A model generated the notes under the pieces. That model did not search any database, was not told where the DNA came from, and worked only from the letters and a program-made list of their open reading frames with translations. This document shows positions 15,162 to 50,781 of a DNA stretch of 64,000 nucleotides, one piece after another. The first letter of the stretch is position 1; each line of letters begins with the position of its first letter. The position numbers and the translations under genes were made by a program. The DNA lies in NCBI GenBank assembly GCA_951406725.2, contig OX597831.1, positions 66,588,001 through 66,652,000 on the forward strand. The letters run 5' to 3'. This DNA comes from Octopus vulgaris (taxonomy: Eukaryota).

Positions 15162-15328
15162 TGAACTCGACTATCAGAAGAACTGTTTGAATTTGGTGTT
15201 GGAGTTTGGCGACATTGACCTTGCAAGTTTGTTCCGTAGCCAATATAAGACAAACAAAATACCCCAAATGATGGTCATGTGCTACTGGACCCAGATGCTG
15301 GAAGCTGTTCTGGTACTCCATAAAGAAG
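15162..15328 (+). CDS. TTK: Mps1/TTK-like kinase domain 1, hinge exon (first exon in the window)
   Basis: AG/GT boundaries. (Y)ELDYQKNCLNLVLEFGDIDLASLF..YWTQMLEAVLVLHKEG aligns with human TTK YDYEI..MECGNIDL..YWKNMLEAV. Confidence 0.92.
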
Positions 15329-15512
15329 GTATTGTATCATACAGGTATTTTTCTAGTGGTGTCATAAAGAAGTTATGTTGTACGGGTGTTTTCCTTAAGA
15401 TTACAGTTGCAATTTTATGGAATTCCAAATGCTTCAAAGCCTGAAAATGTAGAGATATTTCAACATCATATGTTATATAGTACTGTTGTTTGCCATAATA
15501 TAGTTGTGTTCA

Positions 15513-15816
15513 CGAGAACACAACTGTATTATGGCAAACAACAGAGGAAACGGCAAAAAACAGACCACTCTGAAAAACCACCATCCATGAGGGAACGGCG
15601 ACTTTCGAGTCAAAAAGGTCTGCAGAGCTGGAGGAGAAAAGACGACGACGGAAGGAGTGCCAACAACAACCACGTGCGACTCTCCCTTCCGGCACTAGAT
15701 GTCCGCACTGCGACCGATCATTTCAAGCAAGAATTGGTCTTATCGGTCACCTACGGACTCACCAGTAAATTTGCGCGAAGACCATCATCCTCAACCTTGA
15801 TGGATTGCCATCACAT
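15513..15816 (+). mobile_element. RTE-clade LINE 3' fragment with a C2H2 finger
   Basis: ..EEKRRRRKE..CPHCDRSFQARIGLIGHLRTH. 9-bp TSD ttgtgttca at 15504-15512 and 15817-15825. Empty site near 33335 in the paralog. Confidence 0.8.
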
Positions 15817-15881
15817 TTGTGTTCAGTAATGTAATCATGAAAAAGAGTTAGCATAGTAAAATGATATAGTAAAATAACATA

Positions 15882-16154
15882 GGCGCAGGAGTGGCTGTGT
15901 GGTAAGTAGCTTGCTTACCAACCACATGGTTCCGGGTTCAGTCCCACTGCGTGGCATCTTGGGCAAGTGTCTTCTACTATAGCCTCGGGCCGACCAAAGC
16001 CTTGTGAGTTGATTTGATAGACGGAAACTGAAAGAAACCTGTCGTATATATGTTCATATATATATATATAGCTATATATGTATATGTGTGTGTTTGTGTG
16101 TGTGTCCCCCAACATCGCTTGACAACCGATGCTGGTGTGTTTACGTCCCCGTCA
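15882..16154 (+). mobile_element. tRNA-derived SINE family B, truncated by a deletion
   Basis: ggcgcaggagtggctgtgtggtaag..gggttcagtccc head; longer paralog at 33398-33858. Confidence 0.8.
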
Positions 16155-16428
16155 TTTTTAATTTTACCTCATTTTTCTTTCTCCAGTCACTTACTTCATT
16201 AAAAGTTTGCCATGCCAAAAAGGTTGTTGGTCATCAGTAGATTACCTTATGTTTTAAATCAATTTATTACAATAGTGTTTCACCACCTGACCCTTTGGTA
16301 CTTTTCATAGTCTACTTTGTTCTAGGCATTCAAGCCGGGCCTAATGATAATTTCTTTGCACCATTCATGACAGACTTGAACTGGATTGTGAGTCCTTTCT
16401 GCTCTGACTGAAATGATTTTCTTTTCAG

Positions 16429-16622
16429 GTATAGTACATTTGGATTTGAAACCTGCAAACTTCCTGATTGTTGGAGGCCAATTGAAGCTCATAGATTTTG
16501 GTATTGCTGATGTAATACAGACTGGTAAAACTGGCATTAACCAGGAGATACTGATGGGGACACCTGATTACATGAGTCCAGAAGCAATTGCTGTCTACCT
16601 GGATAACTCTAGAAGCCAAAAA
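16429..16622 (+). CDS. TTK: Mps1/TTK-like kinase domain 1, catalytic and activation-loop exon
   Basis: [39 protein letters not shown]; ttttcag|..|gtaagg. Confidence 0.95.
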
Positions 16623-17049
16623 GTAAGGTTTTTAATAATATTTATTCAAATAATTTTACAGGCACTTTTGCTACTTTATTAAAAGACATAAAATTTCCTT
16701 TGTTGTTGTATGAAGTTGCATGGTGTGTAGATTCAATTCAAAAAAAGGAAGCAGATAAATGCTAAAAGAAAAGAAAATATGGAGTTAAATGTTTATATAA
16801 TTGACATGAAAAGTTTTCTGATGATTTATCCTTTGATATGTACATCACATTGAAGGCATTTTCTAAATTAGCTGGTTCTTGCTTTTTAAAACATAGAGGA
16901 CTGTGGTACAGTCACTGAATAGCTTTTGCTATCAACATTGTGTGAAGCATATAGTTGTGTGTAATATCTGGTTGGTGCCAAATTAATTGTAGTTTTTAAT
17001 CATCAACTTTAGGGAAATATTTCAGCTCAGAATAAATCTTATTAATTGA

Positions 17050-17350
17050 AATACAAACATTTTAATGTATACATTTTTCCCATAAAAAAAAACAAATCTA
17101 TCTCTTCCAATAGCATAGAATTCTGAAGTCCTGTAACTGATGACCTTTTTGAAGGACTTTTGAGCTGGTGCATGTTTGTTGAAGACCTTCTTTTGCAGGA
17201 GATGCTTGCAAAAGTAGAAGTCAGTAAAAGAGAAGTGTAGAGAGTAAGCTGGATGTAGTAGAGTTTCATCTTTATTTTGAAGGTTCTCCTCTTCACTATG
17301 AAATTTTTGAAACCAATGTTGAGGTGTGCATTTATGATGGTCCCTTAACC
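17050..17350 (-). mobile_element. Possible degenerate hAT transposase C-terminal relic
   Basis: TFASISCKRRSSTNMHQLKSPSKRS loosely resembles the hAT dimerisation-domain motif. Confidence 0.25.
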
Positions 17351-18642
17351 AAATGCTTTGCATTCCATTTCGAACTTAATTGGGTTTTTTTTTCTATCTT
17401 TAATTTACAGTCTAAAGTAGACACTATTCTCAGTGAAAGCAAAACCATTAGTATAAATCAACAGACTGAAAACAGTGCTTCAAAATGGTACAGTTAGTTA
17501 CATAAATGTCTATTTCAGAATAAGGACGAGAATTTTTGTTTTTAAATGGTTTTTCTGCAAATTAGAAAAGCACCTAGAATTTTTTGACTAGTAAATACAG
17601 CTTATTCATGAGATTTGCGATTTGTAAATTCTGAAATATCTACTGTGTTTCTGAAGAAGAGTGACAGCTCTGATAGCTAGTTAGAATTTTGTTAATTTGA
17701 AATTGTATAAGTTGTAAGGCTGGAGAAATTGGTCCTAAGAAGGGAAGTTTGCATGTAATGTATTAGTGAAGTTACAGAGTATATAGCAAAATTCCCAAAA
17801 GAAAAGTTGTTGTCAAGCCCAAATGACATGTCATGTAATGTAATAGTGAAGTTATAGATTTAAAGGTTTTAATAAAGATATTTTTGCTCAGGTTGACAAG
17901 ATTCCCAATAGTCGATGATGTTTCCAGTAGTAAGTACTCTATAGGTAGACATCATTTTGCTAACAACTCAAGCATGAAATACAAAGGCTATTTATTTATT
18001 TCATAGAGGTAAACTAAAGGAATGATAGTGTTCTGGCAATATGCTATCAGTTAAGCATGATTACATTGACTGCTAGCTTGACATGTATAAGTATTTATCT
18101 CAAAATGGGATATAATCCTTGTGGTCAATTGCATTTGTGATTTGACGTCTCTTCACAATGAGAAATTCTTAATGACTTCATCTATAAAATCTGGATTTTA
18201 GTTTACTTCATTTTACAGATAAAGATTTTTGGTGGGGTTTTGCAACTGTGATTTGTCAAAAAAAGACATCATGAATGCTTTTTAAACTGCAAACTATTTT
18301 CTCTCTATAAGATTGGTCTAACTTCATAAAATGTTTAATTTAGTATAATTTATTTACCTTGGGTTACACCATACTGAGGATTCCAAAGGAGGATGAAATG
18401 GCACTATACATGCTACTAGTGACTGGAAATTTAAATATGTATATTCTGTATGCCTTCTTCACTCTTCGATTTAAATTTCAAACTTCCAAACCCAACTCAG
18501 CTTAACTTAATCCAGAAGTCTTCCCTGTGATAGCTGACCACCTGGGTAAACAATGTATAAGCTTCCCTAGATTGTTTTCGACTGTATATATTTTAAACCT
18601 CTGTCTTAATCTAGCTTACATATTATTTTTATCCGATTCCAG

Positions 18643-18819
18643 ATAGGCTTGAAGAGTGACATTTGGTCTCTTGGTTGTATTCTCTATTTTATGGTCTACG
18701 GTAAAACTCCATTCCAAGAGATTAGAAACACAACAGAAAAACTGATAGCAATAAGAAGTGATAAGTTCAAGATCAAATTTGCTGATGTCAGAAATAAAGA
18801 GCTATTGGATACAATGAAG
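18643..18819 (+). CDS. TTK: Mps1/TTK-like kinase domain 1, subdomain IX-X exon
   Basis: IGLKSDIWSLGCILYFMVYGKTPFQ..LLDTMK; 177 nt, phase 0/0. Confidence 0.95.
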
Positions 18820-19296
18820 GTACGTTTCAATTGTTTGTATGAAATAGTTCAAATTGGTGGTTGATGTTTGTGTGGAATTAGGTGATCTACCTACACTCAG
18901 ATGGCTGGTGTTTGTGTGGGTTTTTGATGAAATATTCACACTCTGGAAACAAGAACATGTATAATTACATGGGATTAATCCAATCTGTGATCTATGTATG
19001 ATTAGATGCAACGGTGTACAACTAGTGGCTGGTATGTGTGTTATTAGATGGAATAGTCTGCATACTGGTAATTGATGGCTTTGTGTATGAGTAGATGAAA
19101 TACTCCACATTCTGGTAGATGGTACATGTATGTGTGATTAGACAGAATGGTCCATGCACACACACATGCACGCGCGCGCGTACACTGATGGTTGGGATTA
19201 AATGGTAGTTGGTGGGTGTGTGATTAGATTGAATGGTCTACACTAGTGATTGCTATTAGGCTGAATAGTCCATGGTCTTGTGGTTGGTGTAAATGT

Positions 19297-19690
19297 CATC
19301 ATCATCATTATCATCATCATTTAACGTCCGCTTTCCATGCTAGCATGGGTTGGACGGTCCAACTGGGGTCTGGGAAGCCAGGAGGCTGCACCAGGCCCAA
19401 TCTGTTCTGGCAGTGTTTCTACAGCTTGATGTCCTTCCTAACGTCAACCTCTCCGTGAGTGGAGTGGGTGCTTTTTACATGCCACCGGCACAGGTGCCAG
19501 ACGAGGCTGGCAAATGGCCACAATCGGATGGTGCATTTTACGTGCCACCGGCACAGAGGCCAGTCGGGGCCGCGCTGGCAACGGCCATGTTCGGATGGTT
19601 CTCTTACATGCCACATGCACTGGTATCACAGTACAATTTCCATTGATTTTGATCGAGATTTCACTTGCCTCAACAGGTCTTCGCAAGTAG
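19297..19690 (-). mobile_element. SINE family A
   Basis: Family tail and internal repeats; partial paralog at 38837-39170. Confidence 0.75.
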
Positions 19691-20198
19691 AGTTTATCTA
19701 CATGTATATTCAGATAAACTGATCCACCTCTGTTGGAGAGTGCTTGTATATAATATTAGATGGAATCATTCACACCCTAGTAGCTAACAGATGTATGGAT
19801 TAGCCTACACTTTGGTGGCTATTGCGTGAGATCAAATGGAATAGTTCTCATTGAGGTAGGAGTATGTATTAAGATACAATGATCCACATTCTAGTCGATG
19901 TATATCAGTAGATGAAATGGTCGTCATTGGTGTCTGCTGCGTGTATGCATGGATGTAAAAAGAACTAATCTACTACTGTTTATCTATCTCTTGAACTCTC
20001 TATTTTCTAGCAAGCTGTATACCCTGCCTCTTTCCTTCCTTCCATCATTCCTTCACTTTTTATTTATGTTCAATCTTTTCACACACGTCTCACATATTCA
20101 CACACCCATACATTAACACATATTGAAGAAAAATTCCAACAAGATTATGTGGATACCAGTATATAGGTTTTGAGATCAAATCCCCTCCAAATGTTTAA

Positions 20199-20418
20199 CC
20201 TTTTAGTGTTTAAACTGGCCATATCTGGCCCAGATATTCTACATGTTTTATATTCAAACTGGCAATATCTAGCCTCTCACACCTACCTGACAATATCATT
20301 TTAAATATAAACAATCACATCATTGAAACCTCAAAGCTATAAGATAATGCATGATTAATTCAAAACAACTTGAGTGGAAAAGTATTACATTTAACAGAGT
20401 AATCTGAACACTAAAGGG
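20199..20418. mobile_element. piggyBac-type MITE, 220 bp
   Basis: TTAA|CCTTTTAGTGTT...AACACTAAAGGG|TTAA; empty TTAA at 39665-39668 in the paralog. Confidence 0.85.
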
Positions 20419-20623
20419 TTAATTGTAATTATATGCAAGGCATCAAGCTGTGGTCCATGTAGCCATGGAGAGTAGGCATTAGATTACCTCAGAATGTTAC
20501 ATGCAACAAACGAGTGTTATCCCTCTAATTTATGTTTTGTACCCTTGAGATATATTTATGATGTTACACACATGCACGCACACATCTACACTTTATATAT
20601 ATCTTACTCTGTTTCTTGTGCAG

Positions 20624-20705
20624 TGCTGTCTGTGCAGAGATCCCAAAGAAAGACCGTCTATTGAAGAAATTCTGCAGCATCCATATTTGAGTGAAATGAC
20701 GATAG
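20624..20705 (+). CDS. TTK: Mps1/TTK-like kinase domain 1, subdomain XI exon
   Basis: CCLCRDPKERPSIEEILQHPYLSEMTI; human TTK has [21 protein letters not shown]. Confidence 0.93.
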
Positions 20706-21750
20706 GTATTTGAGATATTTTTCATCACTACTTAAAATTATTGATAGTAACTTGTATAATGTGTGTAGATATAGTTGTTTTTGTTGATGTGTTACTGTGG
20801 TTATCCCTGCTTGAATAGGGCTCTGCTCTGTAAATCATTTAATTCTTAAAGCTCTGTAGTACTTCTCTATATAAAACTTCATGTCCTATTAGATACATTT
20901 TGCTGATACAATAATATAATAATAACTCTTCTGCTCTTCAGAGATATAAAATTTGAATTTTGTATAATATATCAAATGGTAGTTTTTTTTTAAATTTGAA
21001 GTAATATTATAAAATGGTGTTTGTTTAAAATATAAATTAAAATTTAAAAATTAAAATGTAATAATTAAAATTAAAATGTAAAATTTAAAATTTAAAAATT
21101 AAAATGTAAAAATTAAAATTTTTAAATTACACCAATCAACTTAAGTAAATTAGTAAACAATATAATAATTGTTGGCATACATTGTGAATGTGGGCTTTAC
21201 CTCTTATCATGTCACTTCTACCCGCCAAGGTAGATTGAATACATATAAGTGGATTAGTTGTGAGTATTTTAACATATATTTACAAGATATTGACTCATGG
21301 GTATTGATTTTCTATCTCAGAATTAATTTTATGCTCCATTTAGTCTCTGTAACTTCAAAACTGTATGACTTTGATTAGAAAAAGTATTCAATGGTTTTGT
21401 AAGGCCCAACAGATTAAGTGTTGTTTGCTCTTATTAAAATAATTATGCTCTCCTCAGAAACCCTGCAGTATGCTAAGAATCTACATTTAAAACAGATCTG
21501 TAATTTTTTTTTAATCTTTACCACTCACTAACAAAAGTACCAATACAACAAACAACTATATGATAGCTCCACTCCTGTTCAGAATCCCTTAGAAATAGCT
21601 CTCAGGCTAAAACAATGCAAACGCATTGTGACTAGCGATGTGTAGCAACATCTGATGGTCTGTTCGGTCACGTGATCACGTGATATATAAATATACTTAA
21701 CATTTTCATTCTTATTGTTGTAACTTACTTTAATGTTCCTTAAATTCTAG

Positions 21751-21850
21751 GAAACCTGAAGCCTGAAGAGAAACCACCTATACCAGATTCAGATTTACCT
21801 GTTGGTACTGTGAAAAATAAATTCCTGGCAAGTTTGGCTACTTCAAATGG
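21751..21850 (+). CDS. TTK: Inter-kinase linker exon 1
   Basis: ttctag|GA..GG|gtaagc; open frame GNLKPEEKPPIPDSDLPVGTVKNKFLASLATSNG; phase 1 to 2 fits both neighbours. Confidence 0.75.
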
Positions 21851-22060: not shown

Positions 22061-22080
22061 TGGTGACCCCGACGTGATTT
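22061..22080 (+). mobile_element. tRNA-Trp primer-binding-site-like sequence (LTR element relic)
   Basis: TGGTGACCCCGACGTGATTT is complementary to the eukaryotic tRNA-Trp 3' end including CCA; an AATAAA-containing segment precedes it. Confidence 0.55.
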
Positions 22081-23972: not shown

Positions 23973-23974
23973 TT

Positions 23975-26209: not shown

Positions 26210-26728
26210 AACATCGACTGGCCTCCATTCCGGTGGCATGTAACAAACACCATCCGATTGTGGCCGTTGCCAGCCTGGCCTGGCCTCCGTGCCGGTGGCA
26301 TGTAAAAAGCACCATCTGAGCATGGCAATTTGCCAGCCTCATCTGCCACCTGTGTTGGTGGCACGTAAAAAGCACCATCCGATTGTGGCCGTTCGCCAGC
26401 CTGGCCTGGCCTCCGTGCCGGTGGCACATAAAAAGCACCATCCGAGCGTGGCCATTTGCCAGCCTCATCTGCCACCTGTGTTGGTGGCACATAAAAAGCA
26501 CCATCCGATTGTGGCCGTTCGCCAGCCTCGTCTGGCACCTGTGTTGGTGGCATGTAAAAAGCACCCACTACACTCACGGAGTGGTTGGCGTTAGGAAGAG
26601 CATCCAGCCATAGAAACACTGCCAGATCAGATTGGGCCTGGTGCAGCCTTCTGGCTTCCCAGACCCCAGTTGAACCATCCAACCCATGCAAGCATGGAAA
26701 GCGGACGTTAAACGATGATGATGATGAT
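26210..26728 (+). mobile_element. SINE family A with internal tandem repeats
   Basis: About five repeat units and a ggacgttaaacgatgatg tail. Confidence 0.8.
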
Positions 26729-26826
26729 TTAAAAATCGCACTGTTATGTAGCAGATTGTAGCTTTTATTTATTGATGACTTATTTGGAGGAGCTTGTTTC
26801 TTTTATTGTGTTGTTATGTCTTTCAG

Positions 26827-26908
26827 TCCTGCTAGTATCGATGCAGTCATCACTCCGCAGGTAAAGGATACTGCTCCCTCTGCAACGAATCTTGTACAGT
26901 TAGAGAAG
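26827..26908 (+). CDS. TTK: Inter-kinase linker exon 2
   Basis: ctttcag|T..AAG|gtaggt; PASIDAVITPQVKDTAPSATNLVQLEK; phase 2 to 0. Confidence 0.75.
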
Positions 26909-27021
26909 GTAGGTACTTTGGTTTTGTTATCAGCCACACCTCCTCTGGCATTCTGTGTGTTTGTAATCTGTGATATATCCATCCACTTGATATAGTAACA
27001 TAACCTATTTTAATATTTCAG

Positions 27022-27096
27022 AAACTACGTTCTTTAATGGTCAACAATAAAGTGTACACAGTTGTAAAGAAGGTTGGCAAAGGTGGAAGCAGTACA
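27022..27096 (+). CDS. TTK: Mps1/TTK-like kinase domain 2, Gly-rich loop exon
   Basis: KLRSLMVNNKVYTVVKKVGKGGSST; human TTK has [21 protein letters not shown]. Confidence 0.92.
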
Positions 27097-27266
27097 GTAA
27101 GTACTTATTTATTTTATCTATGTGTGCTCAGGTGTGGCTTTATGGTTAAGAAGCTTGTTTCCTAACTGTGTGGTCTGAGGCTTAGCCTCATTGTACAGCA
27201 CTTTATACAAGTGTCTTATAATATAGTGTGTGCATGTGCTCTTCTCTTCGCATCATATGATGATTG

Positions 27267-27682
27267 GGATCTTTTCGGTTTGAACGGCAGTTTTTAACAT
27301 AATTTCCAGGTAACTAAAAAATTTTAAACTTCGTATACTGGTAGAATGTGTTTATAAAACATCTTTTTCTCTTGGCTTTATTGAGAAAATTTTATTGTTT
27401 GTAAGATATTTGTTGTTTTTTTTCTTCAATTTCTTCAATTTCAACTGTCCATTGAGGTAAATAACATTCTGTGCCGTATGAATATGTCCCTCATTTAAGA
27501 AACAGATTGGGTTTATTTACATTTGTGAAGAAAAAAGATACCCTTCCCCCACACCCTAACCCTAACTAACCCTAACCCTAAAACAGATTGAAATGCAATA
27601 GATCGATACTAGGGTCATAATTATGGGTGACAATTTCATATGACGCCGCTAGTAAAAACTGCTGTTCAAACCGAAAAGATCC
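27267..27682. mobile_element. MITE with a 24-bp TIR and 8-bp TSD
   Basis: GATGATTG|GGATCTTTTCGGTTTGAACGGCAG...CTGCTGTTCAAACCGAAAAGATCC|GATGATTG; fragments also at ~24990-25228 and ~25590-25732. Confidence 0.85.
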
Positions 27683-28033
27683 GATGATTGTAAATGAGCA
27701 TCATTTACAAGTGATGCTGCTTGTTTCTAGTCATGGATTGAAAACATGTCCGGCTATGGGAAAATATTGCCTTGCTTGGAAACAGGTGAGGGTTGATGAC
27801 AGGAAAGCATCGAGCTGTAGAAAGCCTGCCTCAAATTCTGTATGATTCATGCAAGCATAGAAACATGGGCTAAATGATGATAAGGATGATGAGTAGGGAC
27901 GTAGTTTCTGGGGATTGGATAAAGCCTTCAGTAAGGTTTTTTTAAGAGTTGAGGGCATATTAGAATGCCATTGGGATGATGAATAGAAAATAAAAAGAGA
28001 TGGAGGAATTACATAAAATACACACACTATTTA

Positions 28034-28195
28034 GGCGCAGGAGTGGCTGTGTGGTAAGTAGCTTGCTTACCAGCCACATGGTTCCGGGTTCAGTCCCACT
28101 GCTTGGCACCTTGGGCAAGTGTCTTCTACTATAGCCTCGGGCCGACCAAAGCCTTGTGAGTGGATTTGGTAGACGGAAACTGAAAGAAGCCCGTC

Positions 28196-28231
<36 letters not shown>

Positions 28232-28528
28232 GAATGAATGTTTTTATATATAATGAACGTGAAACACAGGAAGGGACGAACACGGAACACAGACAAATCA
28301 TTCGAAGCCTTCAATCTTCATATATGTACGTGTATGTTTGTGTGTCTGTGTTTGTCCCCCTAGCATTGCTTGACAACTGATACTGGTGTGTTTATGTCCC
28401 CGTCACTTAGCGGTTCGGCAAAAGAGGCCGATAGAATAAGTCCCGGGGTCGAGTTGCTCGACTAAAGGCGGTGCTCCAGCATGGCCGCAGTCAACTGACT
28501 GAAACAAGTAAAAGAGTAAAAGAGAGAG
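28034..28528 (+). mobile_element. tRNA-derived SINE family B
   Basis: Family head and an (aagagta)n tail. Confidence 0.8.
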
Positions 28529-29157
28529 TATTTGCTATTGTTAGCTATGTACAACTTCTGCTGTAGTTGTTTGTTATGTACTAGATGCACACGAGTTGCT
28601 ATTTGATAAAAAAGGTGTTATGCAATTGCACAATTCAGTTGTAAGTGAAAGGCAACAACAACTTTTACTCCAGTTCTCATATTAAAACAAATATTGAATC
28701 CCTGCTCTTTTCTTTCCCTCTTTTGTTGGTTTGGTATCTTGTATTGCATTACCGGTTGTTTAACCCCCGGGTCAGTCCTGACTGAGCAAACATAATCCAC
28801 CCTGCTCCCATTATGTTTGTACTCCTTTTATTCTTTTTTTCATCAAGCTGTAGTATTTATTTTTTTTCAAGATGGGTATGATTTAAGAGAAATTCACCTG
28901 CTACTTTTAGCAGGCATAGCACTTGTGTAGATGCTCTCCTGCAGTTCACGTATTGCTAGTTGGCTCTGACTGTAGGAGTTGCAGTGAAATACCATTCACC
29001 TGTCAAAGAACACTTGTTTTCTTTGATATGATATGAAAGTGAATGGAATTGAGATAAATCACATCTACTTTGCATGCCTTTTATTTTAGTTTTGTAAAGA
29101 AATATGTCTCTCTTATATGGAATAAAAGTAATAAACATTTTTAAAGAATTTCATTTA

Positions 29158-29535
29158 TGAGTGGCTGTGTGGTAAGTAGCTTGCTTACGAACCACATGGT
29201 TCCGGGTTCGGTCCCACTGCGTGGCACCTTGGGCAAGTGTCTTCTACTATAGCCTCGGGCCGACCAAAGCTTTGTGAGTGGATTTGGTAGACGGAAACTG
29301 AAAGAAGCCCGTTGTATATATGTATGTGTGTGTGTCTGTGTTTGTCCCCTCAACATTGCTTGACAACCGATGCTGGTGTGTTTACGTCCCCGTCACTTAG
29401 CAGTTCGGTAAAAGAGACCGACAGAATAAGTACTAGGCTTACACAGAATAAGTCCTGGGGTCGATTTGCTCGACTAAAGGCGGTGCTTCAGCATGGCCAC
29501 AATCAAATGACTGAAACAAATAAAAGAGTAAAGAG
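29158..29535 (+). mobile_element. tRNA-derived SINE family B
   Basis: Family head and tail. Confidence 0.8.
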
Positions 29536-29851
29536 TATATGTCTGGTCCATCTGAGTATTCGCTCTTTATCTACTGTAATTACAATAACCCTTACTTTTC
29601 TGAACCTGCTAAAAGTGCTGACAGTTTGCAAGTTATTAGAATAAGTCACATACTAAACAATATGGATTTTATTCCTACATTCCAGAGCTAAATTTACTCT
29701 GAAACTTTCTCAACTTAAAATTGATAATCAGGGCCTTGTTGATGAAATCATAAAAGAAAACATTTTTTTTGTCGGAATTTAAAAGGAGAAAAGTCAACTG
29801 AATTTCTATCAGTTTTTGTAATATTCATCTTATCCATCTCAACCCCCACAG

Positions 29852-30006
29852 GTGTATGAAGTATTTGACCAGAGTGGAAATAGAATGGCAGTTAAGTGCA
29901 TTACTTTTGGTGACGCTCACGCAGTTACCATAGGGAGCTACAAAAAGGAGGTGATCCTTCTGAAGCAGTTGCAGTACAGTGACCGAATCATCAAACTCTA
30001 TGATTA
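29852..30006 (+). CDS. TTK: Mps1/TTK-like kinase domain 2, beta3-Lys and alphaC exon
   Basis: VYEVFDQSGNRMAVKCI..SYKKEVILLKQLQYSDRIIKLYD(Y); cacag|..TA|gtaagt. Confidence 0.93.
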
Positions 30007-30080
30007 GTAAGTGATATATTCTACCGCTGCTGTGTCTTGATTGCGTAGTACATTGATATAAATGATATAACACACAAAGA

Positions 30081-30310
30081 CGGCAAGCTGGCAGAAATGT
30101 TAGCACGCCGGGCGAAATGCTTGGCAGCATTTCGTCTGCAGTTACGTTCTGAGTTCAAATTCCGCCGAGGTCGATTTTGCCTTTCATCCTTTCGGGGTCG
30201 ATAAATTAAGTACCAGTTACGCACTGGGGTCGATGTAATCGACTTAATCCGTTTGTCTGTCCTTGTTTGTCCCCTCTATGTTTAGCCCCTTGTGTGGGTA
30301 ATAAAGAAAC
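30081..30310 (+). mobile_element. tRNA-derived SINE family C
   Basis: gctggcagaaa.gttagc..gagttcaaattccgccgaggtcga..taagtaccag; other copies at 31977-32215 (-), 49790-50015, 50165-50577 (partial dimer) and 63195-63570. Confidence 0.8.
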
Positions 30311-30600
30311 ATATATTGTTGAATGATATATTAAATCTATAGATACTATATTAATTATATAGTTAGTTTATATAATGGGTGTGTGTATATTTGAACCATT
30401 TCATATTTTTGATTCTAGTATTTATGGCTTGTACTAGCATTGTGTATATTAATTAACATTAAGATTTTTAGTATTAATTGCTTAATGGGTATTAGACTTT
30501 ATTTGGATGTTTATTAAATAAATATATTAATTGATAATTGGATTTAATGTATATAGTTTAAAGTGTTGTATTTAGTTTTCATTTAATGTATTTTTTGTAT

Positions 30601-30640
<40 letters not shown>

Positions 30641-30709
30641 AAAGAATATATTTATATTTTAAAAGTATATTTATTAATTAATTAATTATTTTATTATTGT
30701 AGTTATCTT

Positions 30710-30813
30710 TAACCTGATGAGTGGCTATATTTATATTGAAGTGATTTTAATACTACTACTAATATTTTTACTATAATCATTTCTTAAATATAGCCACGAA
30801 ACACGTGTCATTA
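30710..30813 (+). ncRNA. Type I minimal hammerhead with a long stem II (paralog of 14067)
   Basis: taac-CTGATGA-GTGGCTATATTTA..TAAATATAGCCAC-GAAA-CACGTG-TC-atta; palindromic stem III. Confidence 0.65.
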
Positions 30814-31076
30814 TTCTACCAAATATTTACGTTTTATTTATTATTTTGCACTTTACTTTATCATCGTTATATTTTTTATTTTATATTTAATCTTTCTATA
30901 ATATGTAATTTTCTAGATGGTGTAATTTAATTTTTCATTATTGAATTGATAAAAGGTGGTTTTTTCTAATTTATATATATATATATATTATATTTTGTGA
31001 AATTTGATTTAGTATTTCTAAATTGAATTTTTCCCTGTACGTTTGGAATTAGATTCCCTCATGTTATTATTATTAT

Positions 31077-31665
31077 CAATAATAAATCTCTGGACGAGAT
31101 GTAAACAGTAACTGCATGACAATGTGAGGTATACTAGCCATCCCAATATGGCTAACTACTAAGGGTGGGTGTTACTGTAGCTTGTAGCCCATGGAGAACA
31201 TCGTCTCCAGCCGGCTTTAGGCACGCTTTCTGTACCCTTATGATATTTGCAAAGGGAGGTCATCCCTCCCTCGTCAACCTAAGTGATACGCACGGACTGC
31301 AGTTTCTAGGTATTGAACTGTTGTCGGCGTACAACAATCACCGGTTTTCGATGAAGGGAGTCCCAATGCAAATCCTTATAACGTTTTTCCAGTAACTTTT
31401 CGTCACTGATCTCGAAAAACTGTATGCAAGCAATAATAAATCTCTGAACGAGATGTAAACAGTTCAATACCTAGAAACTGCAGTCCGTGCGTATCACTTA
31501 GGTTGACGAGGGAGGGATGACCTCCCTTTGCAAATACCATAAGGGCACAGAAAGTGTGCCTACAGCCAGCTGGAGACGGTGATCTCCTGGGGCTACAAGC
31601 TACAGTAACACCCACCCTTAGTGGTTAGCCATATTGAGATGGCTAGTATACCTCACATTATTATT
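31077..31665. repeat. Fold-back insertion with ~200-bp inverted arms, in (TTA)n
   Basis: 31121-31322 is the reverse complement of 31459-31659; absent from the paralog near 14420. Confidence 0.8.
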
Positions 31666-34208: not shown

Positions 34209-34621
34209 GGATCTTTTCGGTTTGAACGGCAGTTTTTTCTAGCGGTGTCATATGAAATTGTCACCCATAATTATGACCCTAGCATCGATCTATTGCATTT
34301 CAATCTGTTTTAGGTTTAGGGGTTGGATGAAGGGTATTTTTTTTTCTTCACAAATGTAAATAAACCCAATCTGTTTCTTAAACGAGGGACATATTCATAC
34401 AGCACAGAATGTTTTTTTACCTCAATAGACGTCAGTGATTGATTGAAATTGCAGATACTGAAGAAAAAAACCCAACAAATATCTTACAAACTATAGAATT
34501 TTCTCAATAAAGCCAAGAGAAAAAGATGTTTTATAAACACATTCTACCAGTATACGAAGTTTCAAATTTTTTAGTTACCTAGAAATTATGTTAAAAACTG
34601 CCGTTCAAACCGAAAAGATCC
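34209..34621. mobile_element. MITE of the same family as 27267-27682, opposite orientation
   Basis: GGATCTTTTCGGTTTGAACGGCAG TIRs; TSD ATAGCGTT/ATAGTGTT. Confidence 0.85.
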
Positions 34622-34786
34622 ATAGTGTTTTGTATCAATTGTCTGCTCTATTTAAAAGACATAAAACCGTTTACAAGGTGGTTCCATGTAAGCTGATCTG
34701 ATCACAAACTACTTTTTAGCAGTTCTATAAATTAGTTCAGGCCTCCCCCTTTCTCCTTTTAGCTTTTGAGACTTAAGGTACATTAA

Positions 34787-35007
34787 CCCTTTTGATACTA
34801 ACCCGGCCAAAACCGGCTCTGGCTGTGTAGTATAAATGTCTTGTTTTCATAAGTGTTTCATTAAAATATACCACCAAACCTTAGGCACAATTTATGATCC
34901 TAACATTAGCTTAATGATAACTAAGTTATTTTACTAAATTCTTTGTTATATTTACAATTAATTGAAAGAAACACAGAGCATCTCAAAATGAATACGGTAA
35001 AAAAGGG
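34787..35007. mobile_element. piggyBac-type MITE
   Basis: TTAA|CCCTTTTGATAC...GGTAAAAAAGGG|TTAA; inverted relative at 47202-47421. Confidence 0.75.
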
Positions 35008-36548
35008 TTAATTAATGCTGGTATAAGTTTTAAGTGAAAGTATGAGAGCTAGCATAAAAATAGTGAGAGAAATTATGAAGTTATTTTCCTTAGTAGCAAA
35101 TCAGTCGTCTCTTTGTACATTAGTTATATTGTAAGAGGTGTATGTAAAGTGAGTGCATCATGCAACCTGGCAATATAAGCCACTAAACAAGAACCCCATG
35201 TGAAGGTTGCAGAAGAATGACTTACGTATGATCTGTTGGACGCATAAGAAAGTGGTACACTAAGTGAAATAAAAAAGTGATTGGTTATTAAAGAAACAAG
35301 AAGAAATTTTTGAGATTACATCTTGAGGATCTAGGAATGCCAATATGTATGCAATAACCTAAAGCTAACTTGTATAGAAAAACAGACCTTAAAATGATGA
35401 ATTAATGACCTACCATGGGTACTAAATAAAACATAAACCAACAAAGGAACCTGCTAGAAATAGTAAAATTTTCATTAAATCATACCTCAGTATCCCAGAA
35501 ATTATATATCTATGATTATATTGGATAATGTAGTATTAAATCTTTTGTTCAAATATCCTTTAAAATTCATCTGGCTGTAAATATTCAACCAGTTGTTGAG
35601 CAATTCTTTCTGAATTCATTCCAGTTTTCCAAAAGAATTTTCTTGCGATAATGTGATTTTAGCTCTTGTAGCTGTTAATTTAATACTCTGCTAATTCTAA
35701 ACTAAGTGTAACATGCCCTTTTTTAAGGGAAAGAATGACACAACCTTCAGTTCATTTATTGGTTGTAGACATTTGAAGAAATACAGCATAAAATGTTCCA
35801 GTTTTCCTGAGCTTCAGAAGTAATTTTCCTGAAACCAGAGACATTTCAATTTTAATCTTCGCTTATGTTAGAAAGCTTGCCATTTTAATTTTCAGTTTGT
35901 AATTTGTGATTGTTTCAGCAGGCTTGTTAGTAATTGTTACACATTCATATCTATGTGTATACGTAGGTATACGGGTGTAGAATACATCCCCACTTTTGGC
36001 ACTATTTTGTTAGTAAACAGTACGAACTGTGTCTAAAGTATATATATATTACTACACTGAATGTTGACAGTTCGGGTAACAGGTAAAGTAAATAATCACG
36101 TAAAACAATAACAATGGCTTCATTGAGTTGTCTATCACCCATTGAGAACGAAACTACACATAACAGTAATGATGGAAGGTTTCTCAAGAAAATTCTGGGA
36201 GGTTTCTCAAAAAGATTTCATTTCTGGAAGAGGTCCTTTTATTAGTGTAAGTGATTCTGTTGACTTCCAGATTTTTAATTTTACCTCATTTGTCTTTCTC
36301 CAGTCACTGACTTCATTAAAAGTTTGCCATGCCAAAAAGGACTGTTGGTCATCAGTAGATTACCTTATGTTTTAAATCAATTTATTACAATAGTGTTTCA
36401 CCACCTGACCCTTTGGTACTTTTCATAGAGTCTACTTTGTTCTAGGCATTCAAGCCGGGCCTAATGATAATTTCTTTGCACCATTCATGACAGACTTGAA
36501 CTGGATTGTGAGTCCTTTCTGCTCTGACTGAAATGATTTTCTTTTCAG

Positions 36549-36742
36549 GTATAGTACATTTGGATTTGAAACCTGCAAACTTCCTGATTGTTGGAGGCCA
36601 ATTGAAGCTCATAGATTTTGGTATTGCTGATGTAATACAGACTGGTAAAACTGGCATTAACCAGGAGATACTGATGGGGACACCTGATTACATGAGTCCA
36701 GAAGCAATTGCTGTCTACCTGGATAACTCTAGAAACCACAAA
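36549..36742 (+). CDS. TTK: Mps1/TTK-like kinase domain 2, catalytic and activation-loop exon
   Basis: [12 protein letters not shown] and MSPE motifs; differs from domain 1 only at the end (NHK versus SQK). Confidence 0.95.
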
Positions 36743-37164
36743 GTAAGGTTTTTAAAAATATTTATTCAAATAATTTTACAGGCACTTTTGCTACTTTATT
36801 AAAAGACACAAAAGACATTCATGATATTAAAAGATATCATGAATGCTTTTTAAACAGCAAACTATTTTCTCTCTATAAGAATGATCTAACTTCATAAAAT
36901 GTTTAATTTAGTATAATTTATTTACCTTGGGTTACACCATACTGAGGATTCCAAAGGAGGATGAAATGGCACTATACATGCTACTAGTGACTGGAAATTT
37001 AAATATGTATATTCTGTATGCCTTCTTCACTCTTCGATTTAAATTTCAAACTTCGAAACCCAACTCAGCTTAACTTAATCCAGAAGTCTTCCCTGTGATA
37101 GCTGACCACCTGGGTAAACAACGTATAAGCTTCCCTAGATTGTTTTCAACTGTATATATTTTAA

Positions 37165-38253
37165 CCCTTTCGTTACTATATTTCTGACCAAAATACACCC
37201 CTTATGTGTTTCAATTAATTTCTAACATAATCATAAATTTAGTCTGGTTTCATTAAACAACTATAACTTTTTTTTTTATCAATATATTAATGTGATTTTT
37301 GGAAGATAATTTAATGAAATGTTCTCAACCAATTCTATACTATAATTTTTGTCACAAAGTGACTCTAATTGCAGGTAGATACAGGTAAATTCAACAAAAT
37401 ATAAAATTATTAAAATTTTGTTCAAACATCGCTATAGAAAATGGGTTATTAGCTATACAACAAAATTGGGTATACAACAAAATTTTACGATAGAATTTGT
37501 TATTCTGGGTAACTTTCTGATACCCATAATAATATTTATGGCAAAATAGTCTTAATTTCATTTAAGGTTGTAGGAAACCACTAACTATCCTTTCTTTCGC
37601 TTTGTTTACATTTAGCGTAACGGTTCGTTTCCGCCGTAATGATTTCAAATAGGCTCATTCGAAAAAGTAAAAAGAAATAGTCTAAGGCTTTACTCTCCTG
37701 GGAAAATTTGTGGCTTGGTCCAGTTTCTTCAGAAAAATCACCGAAAGAAACAGTTTTTAAATTTTCACTACATTCAGGTGCCAATTCATTTTCTTTATCG
37801 CTGTCGGAGCTCTCGGATTCACTGTTTTCACTTTCGGAAAATGAAACATCAAATTCATTATCAAATACCACGTGCTTTTTTTTTTTCAGTCATAGAGTTA
37901 GATTTATCAAGGTCTTCAGTAGAAAATCCTTCGAATTCTGATTCGCTGCTTGATATAATGAAATTCATATCCATTTTTTGTCAGAATTACAAATTTTGAA
38001 AACACAATAGGAACAAATTTCGGAAAAAAATCTCCCAAAATTCACGGAATTAAAATTACACTTCGATCGTAGTACAAAACTGTAGATGAACTGTTTACGA
38101 AGTATAATCACTTGTTTTCACAAATGTACTAAAGAGATTTGCTCTGATATTCTCATTTAAATATGAATAGGTAAATACGGGCGGGTTTGAGCGGCTTGGT
38201 CACATTAACCAAAACTTTTTTGGGCGGCTTTGGACGGTTTGGTAACGAAAGGG
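37165..38253 (-). mobile_element. Complete non-autonomous piggyBac (1089 bp), cassette-2 specific
   Basis: TTAA|CCCTTTCGTTAC...GTAACGAAAGGG|TTAA; transposase N-terminal remnant at 37581-37871; empty TTAA at 18593-18596. Confidence 0.92.
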
Positions 38254-38303
38254 TTAAACCTCTGTCTTAATCTAGCTTACATATTATTTTTATCCGATTC
38301 CAG

Positions 38304-38480
38304 ATAGGCTTGAAGAGTGACATTTGGTCTCTTGGTTGTATTCTCTATTTTATGGTCTACGGTAAAACTCCATTCCAAGAGATTAGAAACACAACAGAAA
38401 AACTGATAGCAATAAGAAGTGATAAGTTCAAGATCAAATTTGCTGATGTCAGAAATAAAGAGCTATTGGATACAATGAAG
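38304..38480 (+). CDS. TTK: Mps1/TTK-like kinase domain 2, subdomain IX-X exon
   Basis: Translation identical to 18643-18819. Confidence 0.95.
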
Positions 38481-39869
38481 GTACGTTTCAATTGTTTGTA
38501 TGAAATAGTTCAAATTGGTGGTTGATGTTTGTGTGGAATTAGGTGATCTACCTACACTCAGATGGCTGGTGTTTGTGTGGGTTTTTGATGAAATATTCAC
38601 ACTCTGGAAACAAGAACATGTATAATTACATAGGATTAATCCAATCTGTGATCTATGTATGATTAGATGCAACGGTGTACAACTAGTGGCTGGTATGTGT
38701 GTTATTAGATGGAATAGTCTGCATACTGGTAATTGATGGCTTTGTGTATGAGTAGATGAAATACTCCACATTCTGGTTCGTACTGTTTACTAACAAAATA
38801 GTGCCAAAAGTGGGGATGTATTCTACACCCGTATACAGGTGCCAGACGAGGCTGGCAAAAGGTCACGATCGGATGGTGTCTTGTACGTGCCACCGGCACA
38901 GTGGCCATACGATGCTGGCAACGGCCACAATCGGATGGTGCTTTGTACGTGCCACCAGCACAGTGGCCAGACGAGGCTGGCAATGGCCATGATCGGATGG
39001 TGCTTTTTATGTGCCACCGGCACGGAGGCCAGTCGGGGCTGCGCTGGCAACGGCCACATTTGGATGGTTCACTTATGTGCCACCGGCACTGGTATCACAA
39101 CTACAATTTCCATTGATTTTGATCGATTTTGATTTCGATTTCACTTGCCTTAACAGGTCTTTGCAAGTAGAGTTTATCTAAATGTATATTTAGATAAACT
39201 GATCCACCTCTGATGGAGAGTGCTTGTATATAATATTAGATGGAATCATTCACACCCTAGTAGCTAACAGATGTATGGATTAGCCTACACTTTGGTGGCT
39301 ATTGCGTGAGATCAAATGGAATAGTTCTCATTGAGGTAGGGGTATGTATTAAGATACAATGATCCACATTCTAGTGGATGTATATCAGTAGATGAAATGG
39401 TCATCATTGGTGTCTGCTGCGTGCATGGATGTAAAAAGAACTAATCTACTACTGTTTATCTATCTCTTGAACTCTCTATTTTCAAGCAAGCCTCTTTCCT
39501 TCCTTTTTATTTCCTTCACTTTTTATTTACGTTCACCCTTTTTCATACACATCTCACATATTCACACACATTAACACATACATTAACTCATATTGAAGAA
39601 AAGTTCCAACAAGATTATGTGGATACCAGTATATAAGTTTTGAGATCAAATCCACTCCAAATGTTTAATTGTAATTATATGCAAGGCATCAAGCTGTGGT
39701 CCATGTAGCCATGGAGAGTAGGCATTAGATTACCTCAGAATGTTACATGCAACAAACGAGTGTTATCCCTCTAATTTATGTTTTGTACCCTTGAGATATA
39801 TTTATGATGTTACACACATGCATGCACACATCTACACTTTATATATATCTTACTCTGTTTCTTGTGCAG

Positions 39870-39951
39870 TGCTGTCTGTGCAGAGATCCCAAAGAAAGAC
39901 CGTCTATTGAAGAAATTCTGCAGCATCCATATTTGAGAGAAGTGACTATAG
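39870..39951 (+). CDS. TTK: Mps1/TTK-like kinase domain 2, subdomain XI exon
   Basis: CCLCRDPKERPSIEEILQHPYLREVTI; ends in phase 1. Confidence 0.93.
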
Positions 39952-40145
39952 GTATTTGAGATATTTTTCATCACTACTTAAAATTATTGATAGTAACTTG
40001 TATAATGTGTGTAGATATAGTTGTTTTTGTTGATGTGTTACTGTGGTTATCCCTGCTTGAATAGGGCTCTGCTCTGTAAATCATTTAATTCTTAAAGCTC
40101 TGTAGTACATGTATATATGTATATATATATATATATATATATGTA

Positions 40146-44428: not shown

Positions 44429-44529
44429 CTCCAACAGCAGTGACCCCTCCGAGGAGTGATGATTTGAAGCACAATAAACTTGTTGATAATAAATCATTGC
44501 CATTGAATTCTGTAAAGACATCATCACAG
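44429..44529 (+). CDS. TTK: C-terminal tail exon 1
   Basis: aatttcag|CT..CAG|gtaggt; APTAVTPPRSDDLKHNKLVDNKSLPLNSVKTSSQ; phase 1 to 0 bridges its neighbours exactly. Confidence 0.72.
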
Positions 44530-47201: not shown

Positions 47202-47421
47202 CCCTTTCGTTACTGTATTTATTTTGAGATGCTCTCTGTTTTTTTCAATTGCTTTAAATATAACAAAGAATTTAGTAAAATAACTTAGTTATAATTAAGC
47301 TAGTGTTAAGCACATAAATAGTTACTAAAGTTTCGTAGAAGATATTAATACAAAACTTATGGAAACGAGACATTTGTACTCTGAGCCAGAGCCAGTTTCA
47401 GCCGGGTTGGTAACGAAAGGG
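47202..47421. mobile_element. piggyBac-type MITE
   Basis: TTAA|CCCTTTCGTTAC...GTAACGAAAGGG|ATAA; TIR identical to the 1089-bp element. Confidence 0.8.
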
Positions 47422-47665
47422 ATAATTCTCCTACACCAGTCATTGGATAGATCTTCCTAGACAATCTTATCAACAATACTGGGGCGTATCACACTCCACT
47501 AGATATTTTAAGCATCTCAGCAATAATTCCTGATGGACCTAGAACTTTCCTTGTCTTCATATCCTAAATGCATTTTCTATCATATTGCTGTCATCTCAAT
47601 AACTGGTATAAAGAATTTCTCCTCAGACATACTTATTTTCACACACACATCGCACATATATATAA

Positions 47666-48045
47666 CTAGCAGTATCGCTCGGGTTTGTAAGGGAAATAAC
47701 TATATAAGCATTTTAAGAGAGTTATAGCCAAAAAATAGCAAAAAAATGCATTCAAAATGGAAAAAAAATGATGTTAAATTTTTTTTTAAATCGTTGACTC
47801 ATCGTAGACATTTTTAGAGAGTTACTTCCCTTATATAATAGCGAAAAATGCATTAAAATGGAAAAATTGATGGTAAATTTTTTTTAAATCGTAGACTCAT
47901 CATAGACGCGCGCTAATACCCAGAAGGGCTCGATATGAATCACAACTATAAGATACTTTGGTTAAACTGCACCGCAAAATGTGGGAGTAGTTAGGAATCT
48001 AAATCGTAGGAGACAGACACACAACTTGACTTTTATATATAAAGA
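47666..48045 (-). mobile_element. Non-autonomous Helitron
   Basis: Reverse-complement relative of 44655-45048 with TC/CTAG ends; short relative at 55567-55729. Confidence 0.75.
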
Positions 48046-49049
48046 TGTTCCATACATAGATGTATCTATAGATAAATATACACAGATGTGTGTGCTCTCT
48101 CTCTTTCTCTCTCTCTATCTCTCTTTCTCTCACACACATACACCCACACATTTTTAAGAAGCCACAGTCTTTCCAAGAAAATGAAACCCTTAAATTACTT
48201 TTTTTACTCTTTCCGTTGAAGTGATTGTTGTGGAAATGAATTGTTACACAGAACATAAACAAAGAGGAAAAAAATGATAGCTTGAGGTTTCCCACATGCT
48301 TGGAAGCAAAATTAGAAATCCTAGCATTTTTAGGAATATCGTGTGTGTGTGCATGCGTGCACATACACACACGTACATACACACACATATGTATAAAGTC
48401 AATTCAAATAAACAAACAATTCAAAATTTTAAAAATTCAAATAAAAAGACCAAAAAAAAAAGCCAAACATGAGGATGTGCACAAGAAATATATTAGCTTG
48501 ACACTCAGCGAAAGGATAGAGTTTGACATTTTGAGCATAGCTCTTCATTGGAAAGGAGAAAAGGAAAGGTCCAAGGGTGAAGAAGAAATCGCCAACACAT
48601 GTGGTTACATTTGATTTCATCATCGTTTAACGTCCGTTCTCCATGCTAGCATGGGTTGGACGGTTCGACCGGGGATCTGGGAAGCCAGAAGGCTGCTCCA
48701 GTCTGATCTGGCAGTGTTTCTACAGCTGGATGCCCTTCCTAACGCCAACCACTCTGTGATAAATAATTTTTTAAAATTTGCTTCATCTTTATTGCCTGTA
48801 AGATGTGTGACAAATTTTGATTAATTTGGATTGTGAACCATTATTATATGTGTTTCTGTGTGTTTATATATGCATATTTCATCTGGTTGATGGCTTATAT
48901 TTCATCTCTTAGTCTTGCGATAGCATGATAGATAGATGAGTCAAAGATAATAAGATGTGGAATACTGCCACAACATAATAGTGGCAACAAGAATATTACA
49001 GTGCCGACATTAACATACAAGTGGATGAGGATCCACATTATAACAATAT

Positions 49050-49423
49050 TGATTCCGTGGCTGCCCTACTCACCAAATTTAGCACTTGCGGACTTTCATC
49101 TCTTCCCCAAGATGAAAATGCATCTCAAAGGTCACTGTTTTAACACCACTGTTGAGATCCAGAGTGAATCACAGAAGGTCCTCAACTCGCTTACAGAACA
49201 CGACTTCCATGTCAGAATCCAAAAGTAGCAGGATTGGTGGGATTGGTGTATTGTTGCACAAGGCGACTATTTTGAAAGAGATGGTGTTAGAACTTACATC
49301 CTTAAAATCCTTAAAAATCCTTTAAAATGTTTTAGCCCGAAGGCCACGGCCATGCTGGGGCACCAAAGTTATTTTTTTTTATTAAACATAACTAGTATGG
49401 GAACCTTTTGATACCACCTTGTA
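49050..49423 (+). mobile_element. Mariner transposase C-terminal relic and probable 3' TIR
   Basis: LPYSPNLALADFHLFPKMKMHLKG..WDWCIVAQGDYFE. Confidence 0.8.
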
Positions 49424-50643
49424 TCTTATGTGCATTTAGTTAAGCTGATAGATTATCCAGTAATTTGCACAATTCTACTATGTTAAAATTTTGCTGTATA
49501 CTCCTTGAATATAATAACTCACTTTCTATACTGATATTTAAACAAAATTTAAATAATTTTATAACTATGTTGAATTTACCTGTAATTAAATTTATTTTGA
49601 GACAAAAATTATGAAACACATTTGGTTAAGGACCTTTTGTTAAATTGTGTTCCAAAATTCACATTAATATATTGATTAATAAAAAAAAGAGTTGTTTTAT
49701 GAAGCTAGCTTAAATTCATGATTACTTTAGAATTTATTGAAACTCATAAGGGGTGTATTTTGGTTAGCTATATAGTAACAAAAGCTTAAGGCGGTGAGCT
49801 GGCAGAAACGTTAGCATGTCGGGCGAGATGCTTAGCGGTATTTCGTCTACCGTTACGTTCTGAGTTCAAATTCCGCCGAGGTCGACTTTGCCTTTCATCC
49901 TTCCAGGGTCGATAAATTAAGTACCAGTTACGCACTGGAGTCGATGTAATCGACTTAATCCCTTTGTCCTTGTTTGTCCCTTTTATGTTTAGCCCCTTGT
50001 GGGCAGTAGAGAAATATATATAGTAACAAAAGGGTTAAGTAGATGCTGAGGTTAAGGGGTTCAGAAATTAGAAATGAGTGACAGTGACTCCTCCCTTCCC
50101 TCCCTCCCTCTTTCTTACTGCTCTTCTCCTCTGCACCATAAGATGCTCTATATTGTATTCCAAAGGCGGCGAGCTGGCAGAAACGTTAGCACGCTGGGCG
50201 AAATGCGTAGCCGTATTTCGTCTGCCGTTATGTTCTGTGTTCAAATTCCGCCGAGGTCGACTTTGCCTTTCATCCTTTCGGGGTCGATAAATTAAGTACC
50301 AGTTTTGCGCTGGGTCGATGTAATTGACTTAATCCGTTTGTCTGTCCTTGTTTGTTCCCTCTGTGTTTAGCCCCTTGTGGGTAGTAAAGAAATAGGTATT
50401 TCGTCTGCCGCTACGTTGTGAGTTCAAATTCCGCCGAGGTCGACTTTGCCTTTCATCCTTTCGGGGTCGATAAATTAAGTACCAGTTAAGCACAGGGGGT
50501 CGATGTAATCGACTTAATCCGTTTGTCTGTCCTTGTTTGTTCCCTCTGTGTTTAGCCCCTTGTGGGCAGTAAAGAAATATATATTGTGTTCCAAAATATT
50601 ATTCACTCGCTTATTTTATTTGTTTGAGCTTCTTTTTTTCCAG

Positions 50644-50781
50644 ATTGTAGAGGACAAAGAAAACATCGTGGTGGATAGGATGAATTACAAGACCAAATCC
50701 AAGCCAGCTGTTTATTGTGGTACTTCAAAAGAAATTCGAACTCCATTACAGTCTTTGACTGTTGCAGATGACCAGAAATAG
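50644..50781 (+). CDS. TTK: Terminal coding exon
   Basis: Strong polypyrimidine tract plus cag acceptor; IVEDKENIVVDRMNYKTKSKPAVYCGTSKEIRTPLQSLTVADDQK*. Confidence 0.75.
   Translation: MVEDKENIVVDRMNYKTKSKPAVYCGTSKEIRTPLQSLTVADDQK

Follow-up and report, generated by a model that had tools for sequence, protein, structure and literature searches.

Can one Mps1 molecule carry two complete kinase domains, and what would such a protein mean for a kinase that is thought to switch on through kinetochore clustering and mutual phosphorylation (PMC6119859, an excerpt of which lists the mode of dimerisation as open)? This question was raised by an Mps1/TTK-like gene of Octopus vulgaris in a stretch of 64,000 nucleotides of contig OX597831.1 (positions 66,588,001 to 66,652,000), the whole of which is called the window here. 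A preliminary description of this DNA, made from its letters alone, had proposed two tandem kinase domains in one reading frame. Coordinates are those of the window, negative numbers lie upstream of it, and the genome position is 66588000 plus the number given on G000:C18; all exons lie on the forward strand.

Two complete kinase domains in one Mps1 gene

Rejoining the exons of the window reproduced the chain that had been described, namely 14 GT-AG exons of 1891 nt with matching phases: every acceptor was AG, 13 of 13 donors were GT, and a single frame remained open to its terminal stop, the other two frames containing 58 and 54 stops. The product was a substring of the annotated O. vulgaris TTK-like protein P0121 (CAI9736307.1, 2572 aa), and a six-frame scan of the window returned two exons with the catalytic-loop motif, two with DIWSLG, and one with GKGGSS. 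With 100 kb of upstream DNA included, a unique splice solution was obtained, in which residues 24-2572 of P0121 (2549 residues) are encoded by 28 exons between -26425 and 50781, all with AG acceptors and GT donors and without a premature stop. Their order is T, A0, B1-C1-D1, B2-C2-D2, B3-C3-D3, E1-K1, A2, E2-K2, L, M. The A..K unit has phase 1 at both ends, so that the linker-plus-kinase unit is indeed a symmetric module flanked by phase-1 introns, and the B-C-D unit has phase 2 at both ends. The N-lobe of kinase 1 was found 1.0-2.2 kb upstream of the window (L001:7802-9037; exons E1, F1, and G1 at -2198 to -963), and kinase 1 is therefore complete. Two Pfam Pkinase stretches were present in P0121 and in the Octopus sinensis model P0001, and one each in P0122 of O. 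bimaculoides and P0003 of Argonauta hians, which upheld the proposal of two kinase domains in one frame. The two-kinase exon chain in the DNA is real and far exceeds chance, and we are nearly certain that this arrangement of the octopus gene is genuine.

Kinase cassette 1 starts 2.5 kb upstream of the window and occupies 1..20872 within it; it is collinear with kinase cassette 2 (26542..40118). Its exons in the window are H1 (15162..15328), which encodes the hinge and helices D-E; I1 (16429..16622), with the catalytic loop, activation loop, and SPE; J1 (18643..18819), with DIWSLG and helices F-G; and K1 (20624..20705), which completes the domain and finishes in phase 1. Kinase 2 is distributed over F2 (27022..27096; strand 1 and the glycine-rich loop GKGGSS), G2 (29852..30006; the AVK lysine and helix C), H2 (32991..33157; hinge), I2 (36549..36742; catalytic loop, DFG, activation loop, and SPE), J2 (38304..38480; DIWSLG, with the same sequence as J1), and K2 (39870..39951; domain end, again in phase 1). 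The C-terminal tail follows in exon L (44429..44529), present once within the 184 kb searched, and in the final coding exon M (50644..50781), which ends in TAG and is followed by AATAAA/ATTAAA hexamers from 51361 on.

The assignment to Mps1/TTK was confirmed by structure matches and phylogeny. The kinase domain aligned to human TTK with E = 3.3e-78 over 276/278 residues, all PDB matches at E <= 1e-40 were TTK (22/22), the top homologues carried the names TTK or MPS1, and the tree placed both domains within the TTKs of cephalopods and other animals. Both copies retain the Gly loop, beta-3 Lys, helix-C Glu, HxDLKPAN, DFG, xPE, and DxWSxG, and the alignment of kinase 2 with human TTK spanned the whole domain and included every catalytic motif. 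Between the cassettes, 15 of 932 coding nt are different, which affects 14 codons and 8 of 310 residues (97% protein identity), none of them in a catalytic motif. At the two activation-segment sites that we take to be human T676 and T686 (a numbering partly assumed, position 676 included), aligned threonines were present and identical in both copies. Most of the divergence lies in the hinge exon, where 10/167 nt differ between H1 and H2: kinase 2 reads ECGNIDL, as in human Mps1, and kinase 1 reads EFGDIDL, with Phe at the position of human Cys604, a residue also found in O. bimaculoides and Argonauta. According to an excerpt of PMC4867491, human C604F cells grow, retain the checkpoint under inhibitor, and resist Cpd-5 and MPI-0479605. 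Because the motifs are intact, the hinge Phe is normal in relatives, and human C604F cells are checkpoint-proficient, both octopus domains are predicted to be active. Since the hinge differs between the two and C604F confers resistance in human cells, inhibitors of the Cpd-5/MPI-0479605 type might separate the halves.

The two-exon linker of about 60 aa had been regarded as unique, but both of its exons have counterparts. Exon A2 (21751..21850, phase 1 to 2) is a copy of the N-terminal exon A0 (G000:C18:66564630-66564729), with 3/100 nt different, and E2 (26827..26908) is identical to E1 (L001:7802-7883), which precedes kinase 1. Kinase 1 is separated from the opening strand of kinase 2 by 77 residues rich in P, K, S, and T; the O. 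bimaculoides protein has 651 residues between exon A and the kinase that follows it. A linker of this length should suffice for a face-to-face kinase pair and would permit any dimer geometry.

Upstream of the window, exons B-C-D occur three times in frame (G000:C18:66565824-66585225, window -22176 to -2775; L003-L001), the first D copy with an in-frame deletion of 27 nt. Each B-C-D copy supplies one KFLRIKKMPQRV, present three times in P0121, which is the best-conserved short motif of the Mps1 middle region; a pattern for it, chosen after the alignment had been viewed, matched 100/114 TTK N-termini versus 6% of shuffles. PFGR in human Mps1 and LPQR in Aurora B are tetrapeptides reported to bind Ndc80/Nuf2 (excerpt of bioRxiv 10.1101/2023.11.22.568383). 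The octopus MPQR motif resembles these and, judged by sequence, is likely a candidate binding site with its final arginine; three copies would be expected to increase kinetochore avidity. A partial third copy of exon A, comprising its 3' half and donor and no acceptor, was observed at G000:C18:66571764-66572015 (window -16236 to -15985), at a B-C-D duplication breakpoint.

Genome-wide searches, in which the best candidates were scored, gave two matches for the catalytic-loop exon, three for exon B, and one each for exons T and M, all at the Mps1 locus. The two kinase cassettes share a single tail exon and a single last TPR exon (T), and thus we treated the locus as one gene. A separate single-kinase Mps1 was not found among the best-scoring candidates of the O. 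vulgaris genome searches, and further kinase copies were found neither within 100 kb upstream nor genome-wide; a third genome match, 48% identical, was rejected as a different kinase. The expectation that more linker-plus-kinase copies might lie upstream was thus not borne out: the genome searches gave two, and it is B-C-D that is repeated there instead.

Relatives and age of the duplication

The same architecture was observed in the O. sinensis RefSeq model P0001 (XP_029645935.1), which matched P0121 at 733/734 residues from exon E to the end; the O. sinensis evidence consists of protein models, not DNA. Its A'-E' linker carries the A2-type proline, and 7/8 copy-specific residues reside in the same copy. 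P0001 opens inside a D exon and continues with B-C-D; therefore, B-C-D is at least doubled in O. sinensis. Unlike the octopus tandem, the O. bimaculoides model P0122 (XP_052830151.1), the A. hians model P0003, and the Logan cluster P0027 (60% identity, 19 members) each have one kinase and one middle-region motif. The O. bimaculoides protein shows the same order of exon-encoded blocks and 94% kinase identity. At six residues, both octopus copies deviate together from the state common to O. bimaculoides and Argonauta, including the catalytic loop, which is HLD in the tandem and HSD in those two species and in human. In a tree of 14 domains, from which two molluscs were left out since the anchor pattern missed them, the four tandem domains grouped beside the O. 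bimaculoides domain (support 90/92, not starred). The relevant splits are placed at 2.5 and about 34 million years ago (Mya), as cited in an excerpt of bioRxiv 10.1101/2023.05.16.540928. Because two sister species carry the tandem and O. bimaculoides and Argonauta have a single kinase, the kinase was likely duplicated later than about 34 but earlier than 2.5 million years ago; a collapsed duplicate in O. bimaculoides, or gene conversion masking an older event, would shift this date. The Argonauta orthologue P0003 is named 'Nek7-like' in its source; exon D, a large exon, seems to be missing from it, and its TPR is followed by a KPEITDN repeat.

Over 11 blocks, the cassettes align collinearly with 95-99.8% identity. 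In their introns, 84 of 4575 aligned bases are substituted (1.8%), and 8 small and 10 large indels were counted. The blocks were required to be >=100 nt long and >=95% identical, and two that crossed repeats were dropped, a filter that biases the divergence downward. Between cassettes 1 and 2, pS was 0.034 and pN 0.012 (pN/pS 0.34, Fisher p = 0.05, borderline). No indel or stop was found in the 932 exon bases, for which P is about 0.03 when all intron indels are counted and 0.20 with small ones only. Purifying selection on both cassettes fits these data, which fall short of proof.

We then asked how widely such tandems occur. A tandem Mps1 is expected to score about double in a kinase search, and P0001 indeed reached 1172 bits versus 627. 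No other double-scoring protein was seen in the best 120 of 2968 matches (8000 candidates, 652-2078 aa), nor among the top 150 matches to 1.84 billion cluster representatives, a set in which cluster members are hidden, P0001 itself is absent, and rare cases can be missed. Among 371 proteins, of which 7 were flagged, only P0001 and P0121 had two complete Mps1 domains. The rejected candidates were P0124 (Acipenser sinensis, sturgeon, labelled unverified), which has a truncated Mps1 kinase beside a full one, possibly a partial duplication or a mis-joined model; P0125 (alga), in which part of the C-lobe is repeated; P0333, an Mps1 kinase plus an unrelated kinase; and P0005 and P0006, non-Mps1 proteins with scores of just 64-77 bits for each domain. 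In agreement with the preliminary description, which knew of no tandem-kinase Mps1, neither such a protein nor an octopus Mps1 was described in the literature searched, which included few subscription papers. The tandem architecture can already be read from two public gene models; no paper that describes it was found. What the locus presents is a kinase cassette that was recently doubled in frame within the sole Mps1 gene located, an arrangement common to two sister octopus species.

Two kinase folds per chain also occur in JAK, RSK/MSK, GCN2, and the plant tandem kinase proteins. The same holds for obscurin/SPEG (excerpt of PMC10129394). Those proteins are of ancient origin and combine either unlike kinase domains or a kinase and a pseudokinase, whereas the octopus pair is recent and 97% identical; neither the mixed-type nor the kinase-pseudokinase tandem of JAK, RSK/MSK, and obscurin describes two near-identical copies that both have all motifs. 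Octopus Mps1 has the kinase domain in common with human TTK (PDB 5n7v, 3cek), and probably also the N-terminal TPR and the arginine-terminated motif of the middle region; unlike human TTK, it has three middle-region modules and two complete kinases instead of the single C-terminal kinase of canonical Mps1.

Predicted consequences and rival explanations

We proposed three events, each of which keeps the frame: a duplication of the A..K unit, for which unequal crossing-over within introns rich in repeats is the most likely route; the absence of B-C-D from the second copy, either by loss or because it was never included, which would have shortened the distance from exon A to the kinase from ~650 to 77 residues; and a multiplication of B-C-D in the first copy. 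Because the splice sites are intact and no premature stop intervenes, default splicing would include both cassettes, and a two-kinase mRNA is probably a major product. A single N-terminal extension (NTE) with its TPR, together with three likely Ndc80/Nuf2-binding motifs, would then bring two kinases to the kinetochore, and the need for clustering before autoactivation would be reduced. Human Mps1 is activated by trans-autophosphorylation, for which induced dimerisation suffices, and is autoinhibited by its NTE (excerpts of PMC6119859 and PMC5863767), which makes activation through a tether plausible. The nearest engineered counterpart is FKBP-fused Mps1, in which two kinase domains are held together and dimerisation activated or rescued autophosphorylation (excerpts of PMC5863767 and PMC6119859); that system brings two whole molecules together when required, whereas in the octopus a permanent covalent connection would join the kinases, which would have one NTE-TPR between them. 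We give about equal weight to either side of the proposal that an internal tandem duplication yielded one protein whose two predicted-active kinases, on a 77-residue tether, phosphorylate each other's activation loops without a second molecule; whether the tether would change Mps1 activation seems to us similarly balanced. The arrangement may be adaptive or simply tolerated. The bolder suggestion, that the spindle checkpoint of the common octopus is run by a self-contained Mps1 dimer that cross-activates without clustering, bears three Ndc80-binding motifs, and is controlled by the NTE, phosphatases, and splicing choice unlike in any studied species, is tentative and rather doubtful. In either case, the octopus tandem offers a natural test of whether proximity alone is sufficient and of what silences a pre-paired kinase.

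Several observations weigh against a self-activating two-kinase protein. Both two-kinase proteins, P0121 and P0001, are gene-model predictions, and no transcript-derived Mps1 protein of O. vulgaris or O. sinensis was present among the protein matches listed. Among the sequencing runs listed as containing sequence words of the K1-A2 stretch, none was recorded as RNA, and 14 of 24 had shares of just 0.05-0.10, which speak neither for nor against the junction. Three runs contained 0.59-0.68 of the words; 26% of these words recur in the 384 kb analysed, and since part of the remainder is a dispersed repeat, the shares do not show the junction in other animals. The deficit of nonsynonymous relative to intron divergence was not significant (p = 0.17-0.29). 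Exon pairs E, F, G, and J are identical (4/7), and 10/15 differences fall in H, a patchiness that suggests gene conversion, which could produce it in the absence of selection. Activation-loop phosphorylation can occur in cis in other kinases (PMC10359097, whose excerpted text does not mention Mps1; excerpt of bioRxiv 10.64898/2026.10.08.757607), and the NTE restrains human Mps1 (excerpt of PMC5863767); a tether need therefore not activate. Finally, the first 132 codons, comprising the NTE and most of the TPR, were absent from genome-wide searches and from a local search of 300 kb upstream, exon T being the only N-terminal TPR exon located in the O. vulgaris assembly. An assembly gap of 100 N (G000:C18:66551796-66551895, window -36204 to -36105) adjoins a 238-bp tandem repeat, 10 kb upstream of exon T. 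The O. sinensis model P0372, whose contig equals that of P0001 in length, consists of NTE-TPR-T-A0 followed by part of B and includes the residues not located in O. vulgaris. The absent 5' exons most likely sit in this gap, with real loss as the alternative. The first exon of P0121, which lies beyond the gap and is unlike the N-termini of relatives, is probably spurious.

The strongest competitor, a minority possibility in our judgment, holds that the two-kinase protein is made and that the duplication arose by accident in an unstable locus rich in repeats and has been tolerated, NTE release and clustering still being required and the second domain adding dosage. The same gene carries a triplicated B-C-D, a partial exon-A copy, and many insertions, which indicates that it duplicates readily, and symmetric phases keep the frame; moreover, the selection signal is borderline and the copies are young, with 97% protein identity. 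However, both cassettes have stayed intact despite 10 large intron indels and a species split of 2.5 Mya, and the loss of B-C-D specifically shortened the inter-kinase distance. Somewhat less probable is the splicing of one cassette at a time (E1-A2 or A2-K2 skipped, or a hybrid), giving alternative single-kinase isoforms. By phase, the frame is retained when either cassette is skipped, and also in hybrids with a 5' half from one cassette and a 3' half from the other, a further point against the self-activating protein; the long inverted repeats of a 12.7-kb insertion in the G1-H1 intron could promote skipping; and read-through of the K1 donor gives GI-stop, the ending of the truncated O. bimaculoides model P0123. 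Set against this, the 60-nt exon flanks differ by <=1 base between copies at 6/7 upstream and 7/7 downstream positions, so both cassettes hold equally good splice sites, no premature stop would eliminate the two-kinase mRNA, and no poly(A) hexamer occurs in the first 167 nt 3' of K1.

That the tandem is an assembly artefact, in which two haplotypes of a gene with one kinase were strung together head to tail, is very unlikely, even though the 1.8% intron divergence of the cassettes is close to the heterozygosity reported for an O. vulgaris specimen (1.22%, excerpt of bioRxiv 10.1101/2023.05.16.540928), so that divergence by itself does not separate true from false duplication. The gap 36 kb upstream with 5' exons missing from the locus, and the knowledge of O. 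sinensis from protein models, also favour an artefact. A strong argument against it is that the assembly of a second species has the same tandem order, A'-E' junction, and copy-specific residues; in addition, an A-to-E junction without B-C-D is no allele of a single-kinase gene of the O. bimaculoides type, and no N run occurs from exon T to exon M. Least credible of all, indeed scarcely tenable, is that the cassettes are two separate genes: no transcript joining them was seen, but cassette 1 is without tail exons, cassette 2 is without a TPR, B, C, or D of its own, exons T and M have a single genome match each, and A2 starts in phase 1 behind an acceptor. The internal tandem duplication in one gene stands as our preferred reading of the locus.

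Mobile elements and repeats around the gene

The 12.7-kb insertion in the G1-H1 intron (window 1270-13972) is absent from cassette 2. It contains nested inverted repeats (1432-1802/12809-13171 and 5853-6615/7552-8315, the latter at 98%) and open reading frames (ORFs) at 5650-6843 (-), 6794-7447 (-), 7673-8785 (+), and 10918-12096 (+). Motifs in these ORFs are reminiscent of a Penelope-like reverse transcriptase with a GIY-YIG nuclease, a label that we assume and for which Pfam gave no significant match. A dispersed repeat with at least 40 other genome copies (75-94% identity) occupies window 22078-22940 in the A2-E2 intron. A 0.9-kb element occurs at 95% identity in the G1-H1 intron (window 237-1149) and in the I2-J2 intron (37344-38257), which are non-equivalent sites, and window 1-240 is repeated at 641-880. 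Downstream of the gene, a 429-aa ORF at 61366-62655 (-) encodes the reverse transcriptase of a non-LTR (long terminal repeat) retrotransposon (RVT_1, E = 1e-26).

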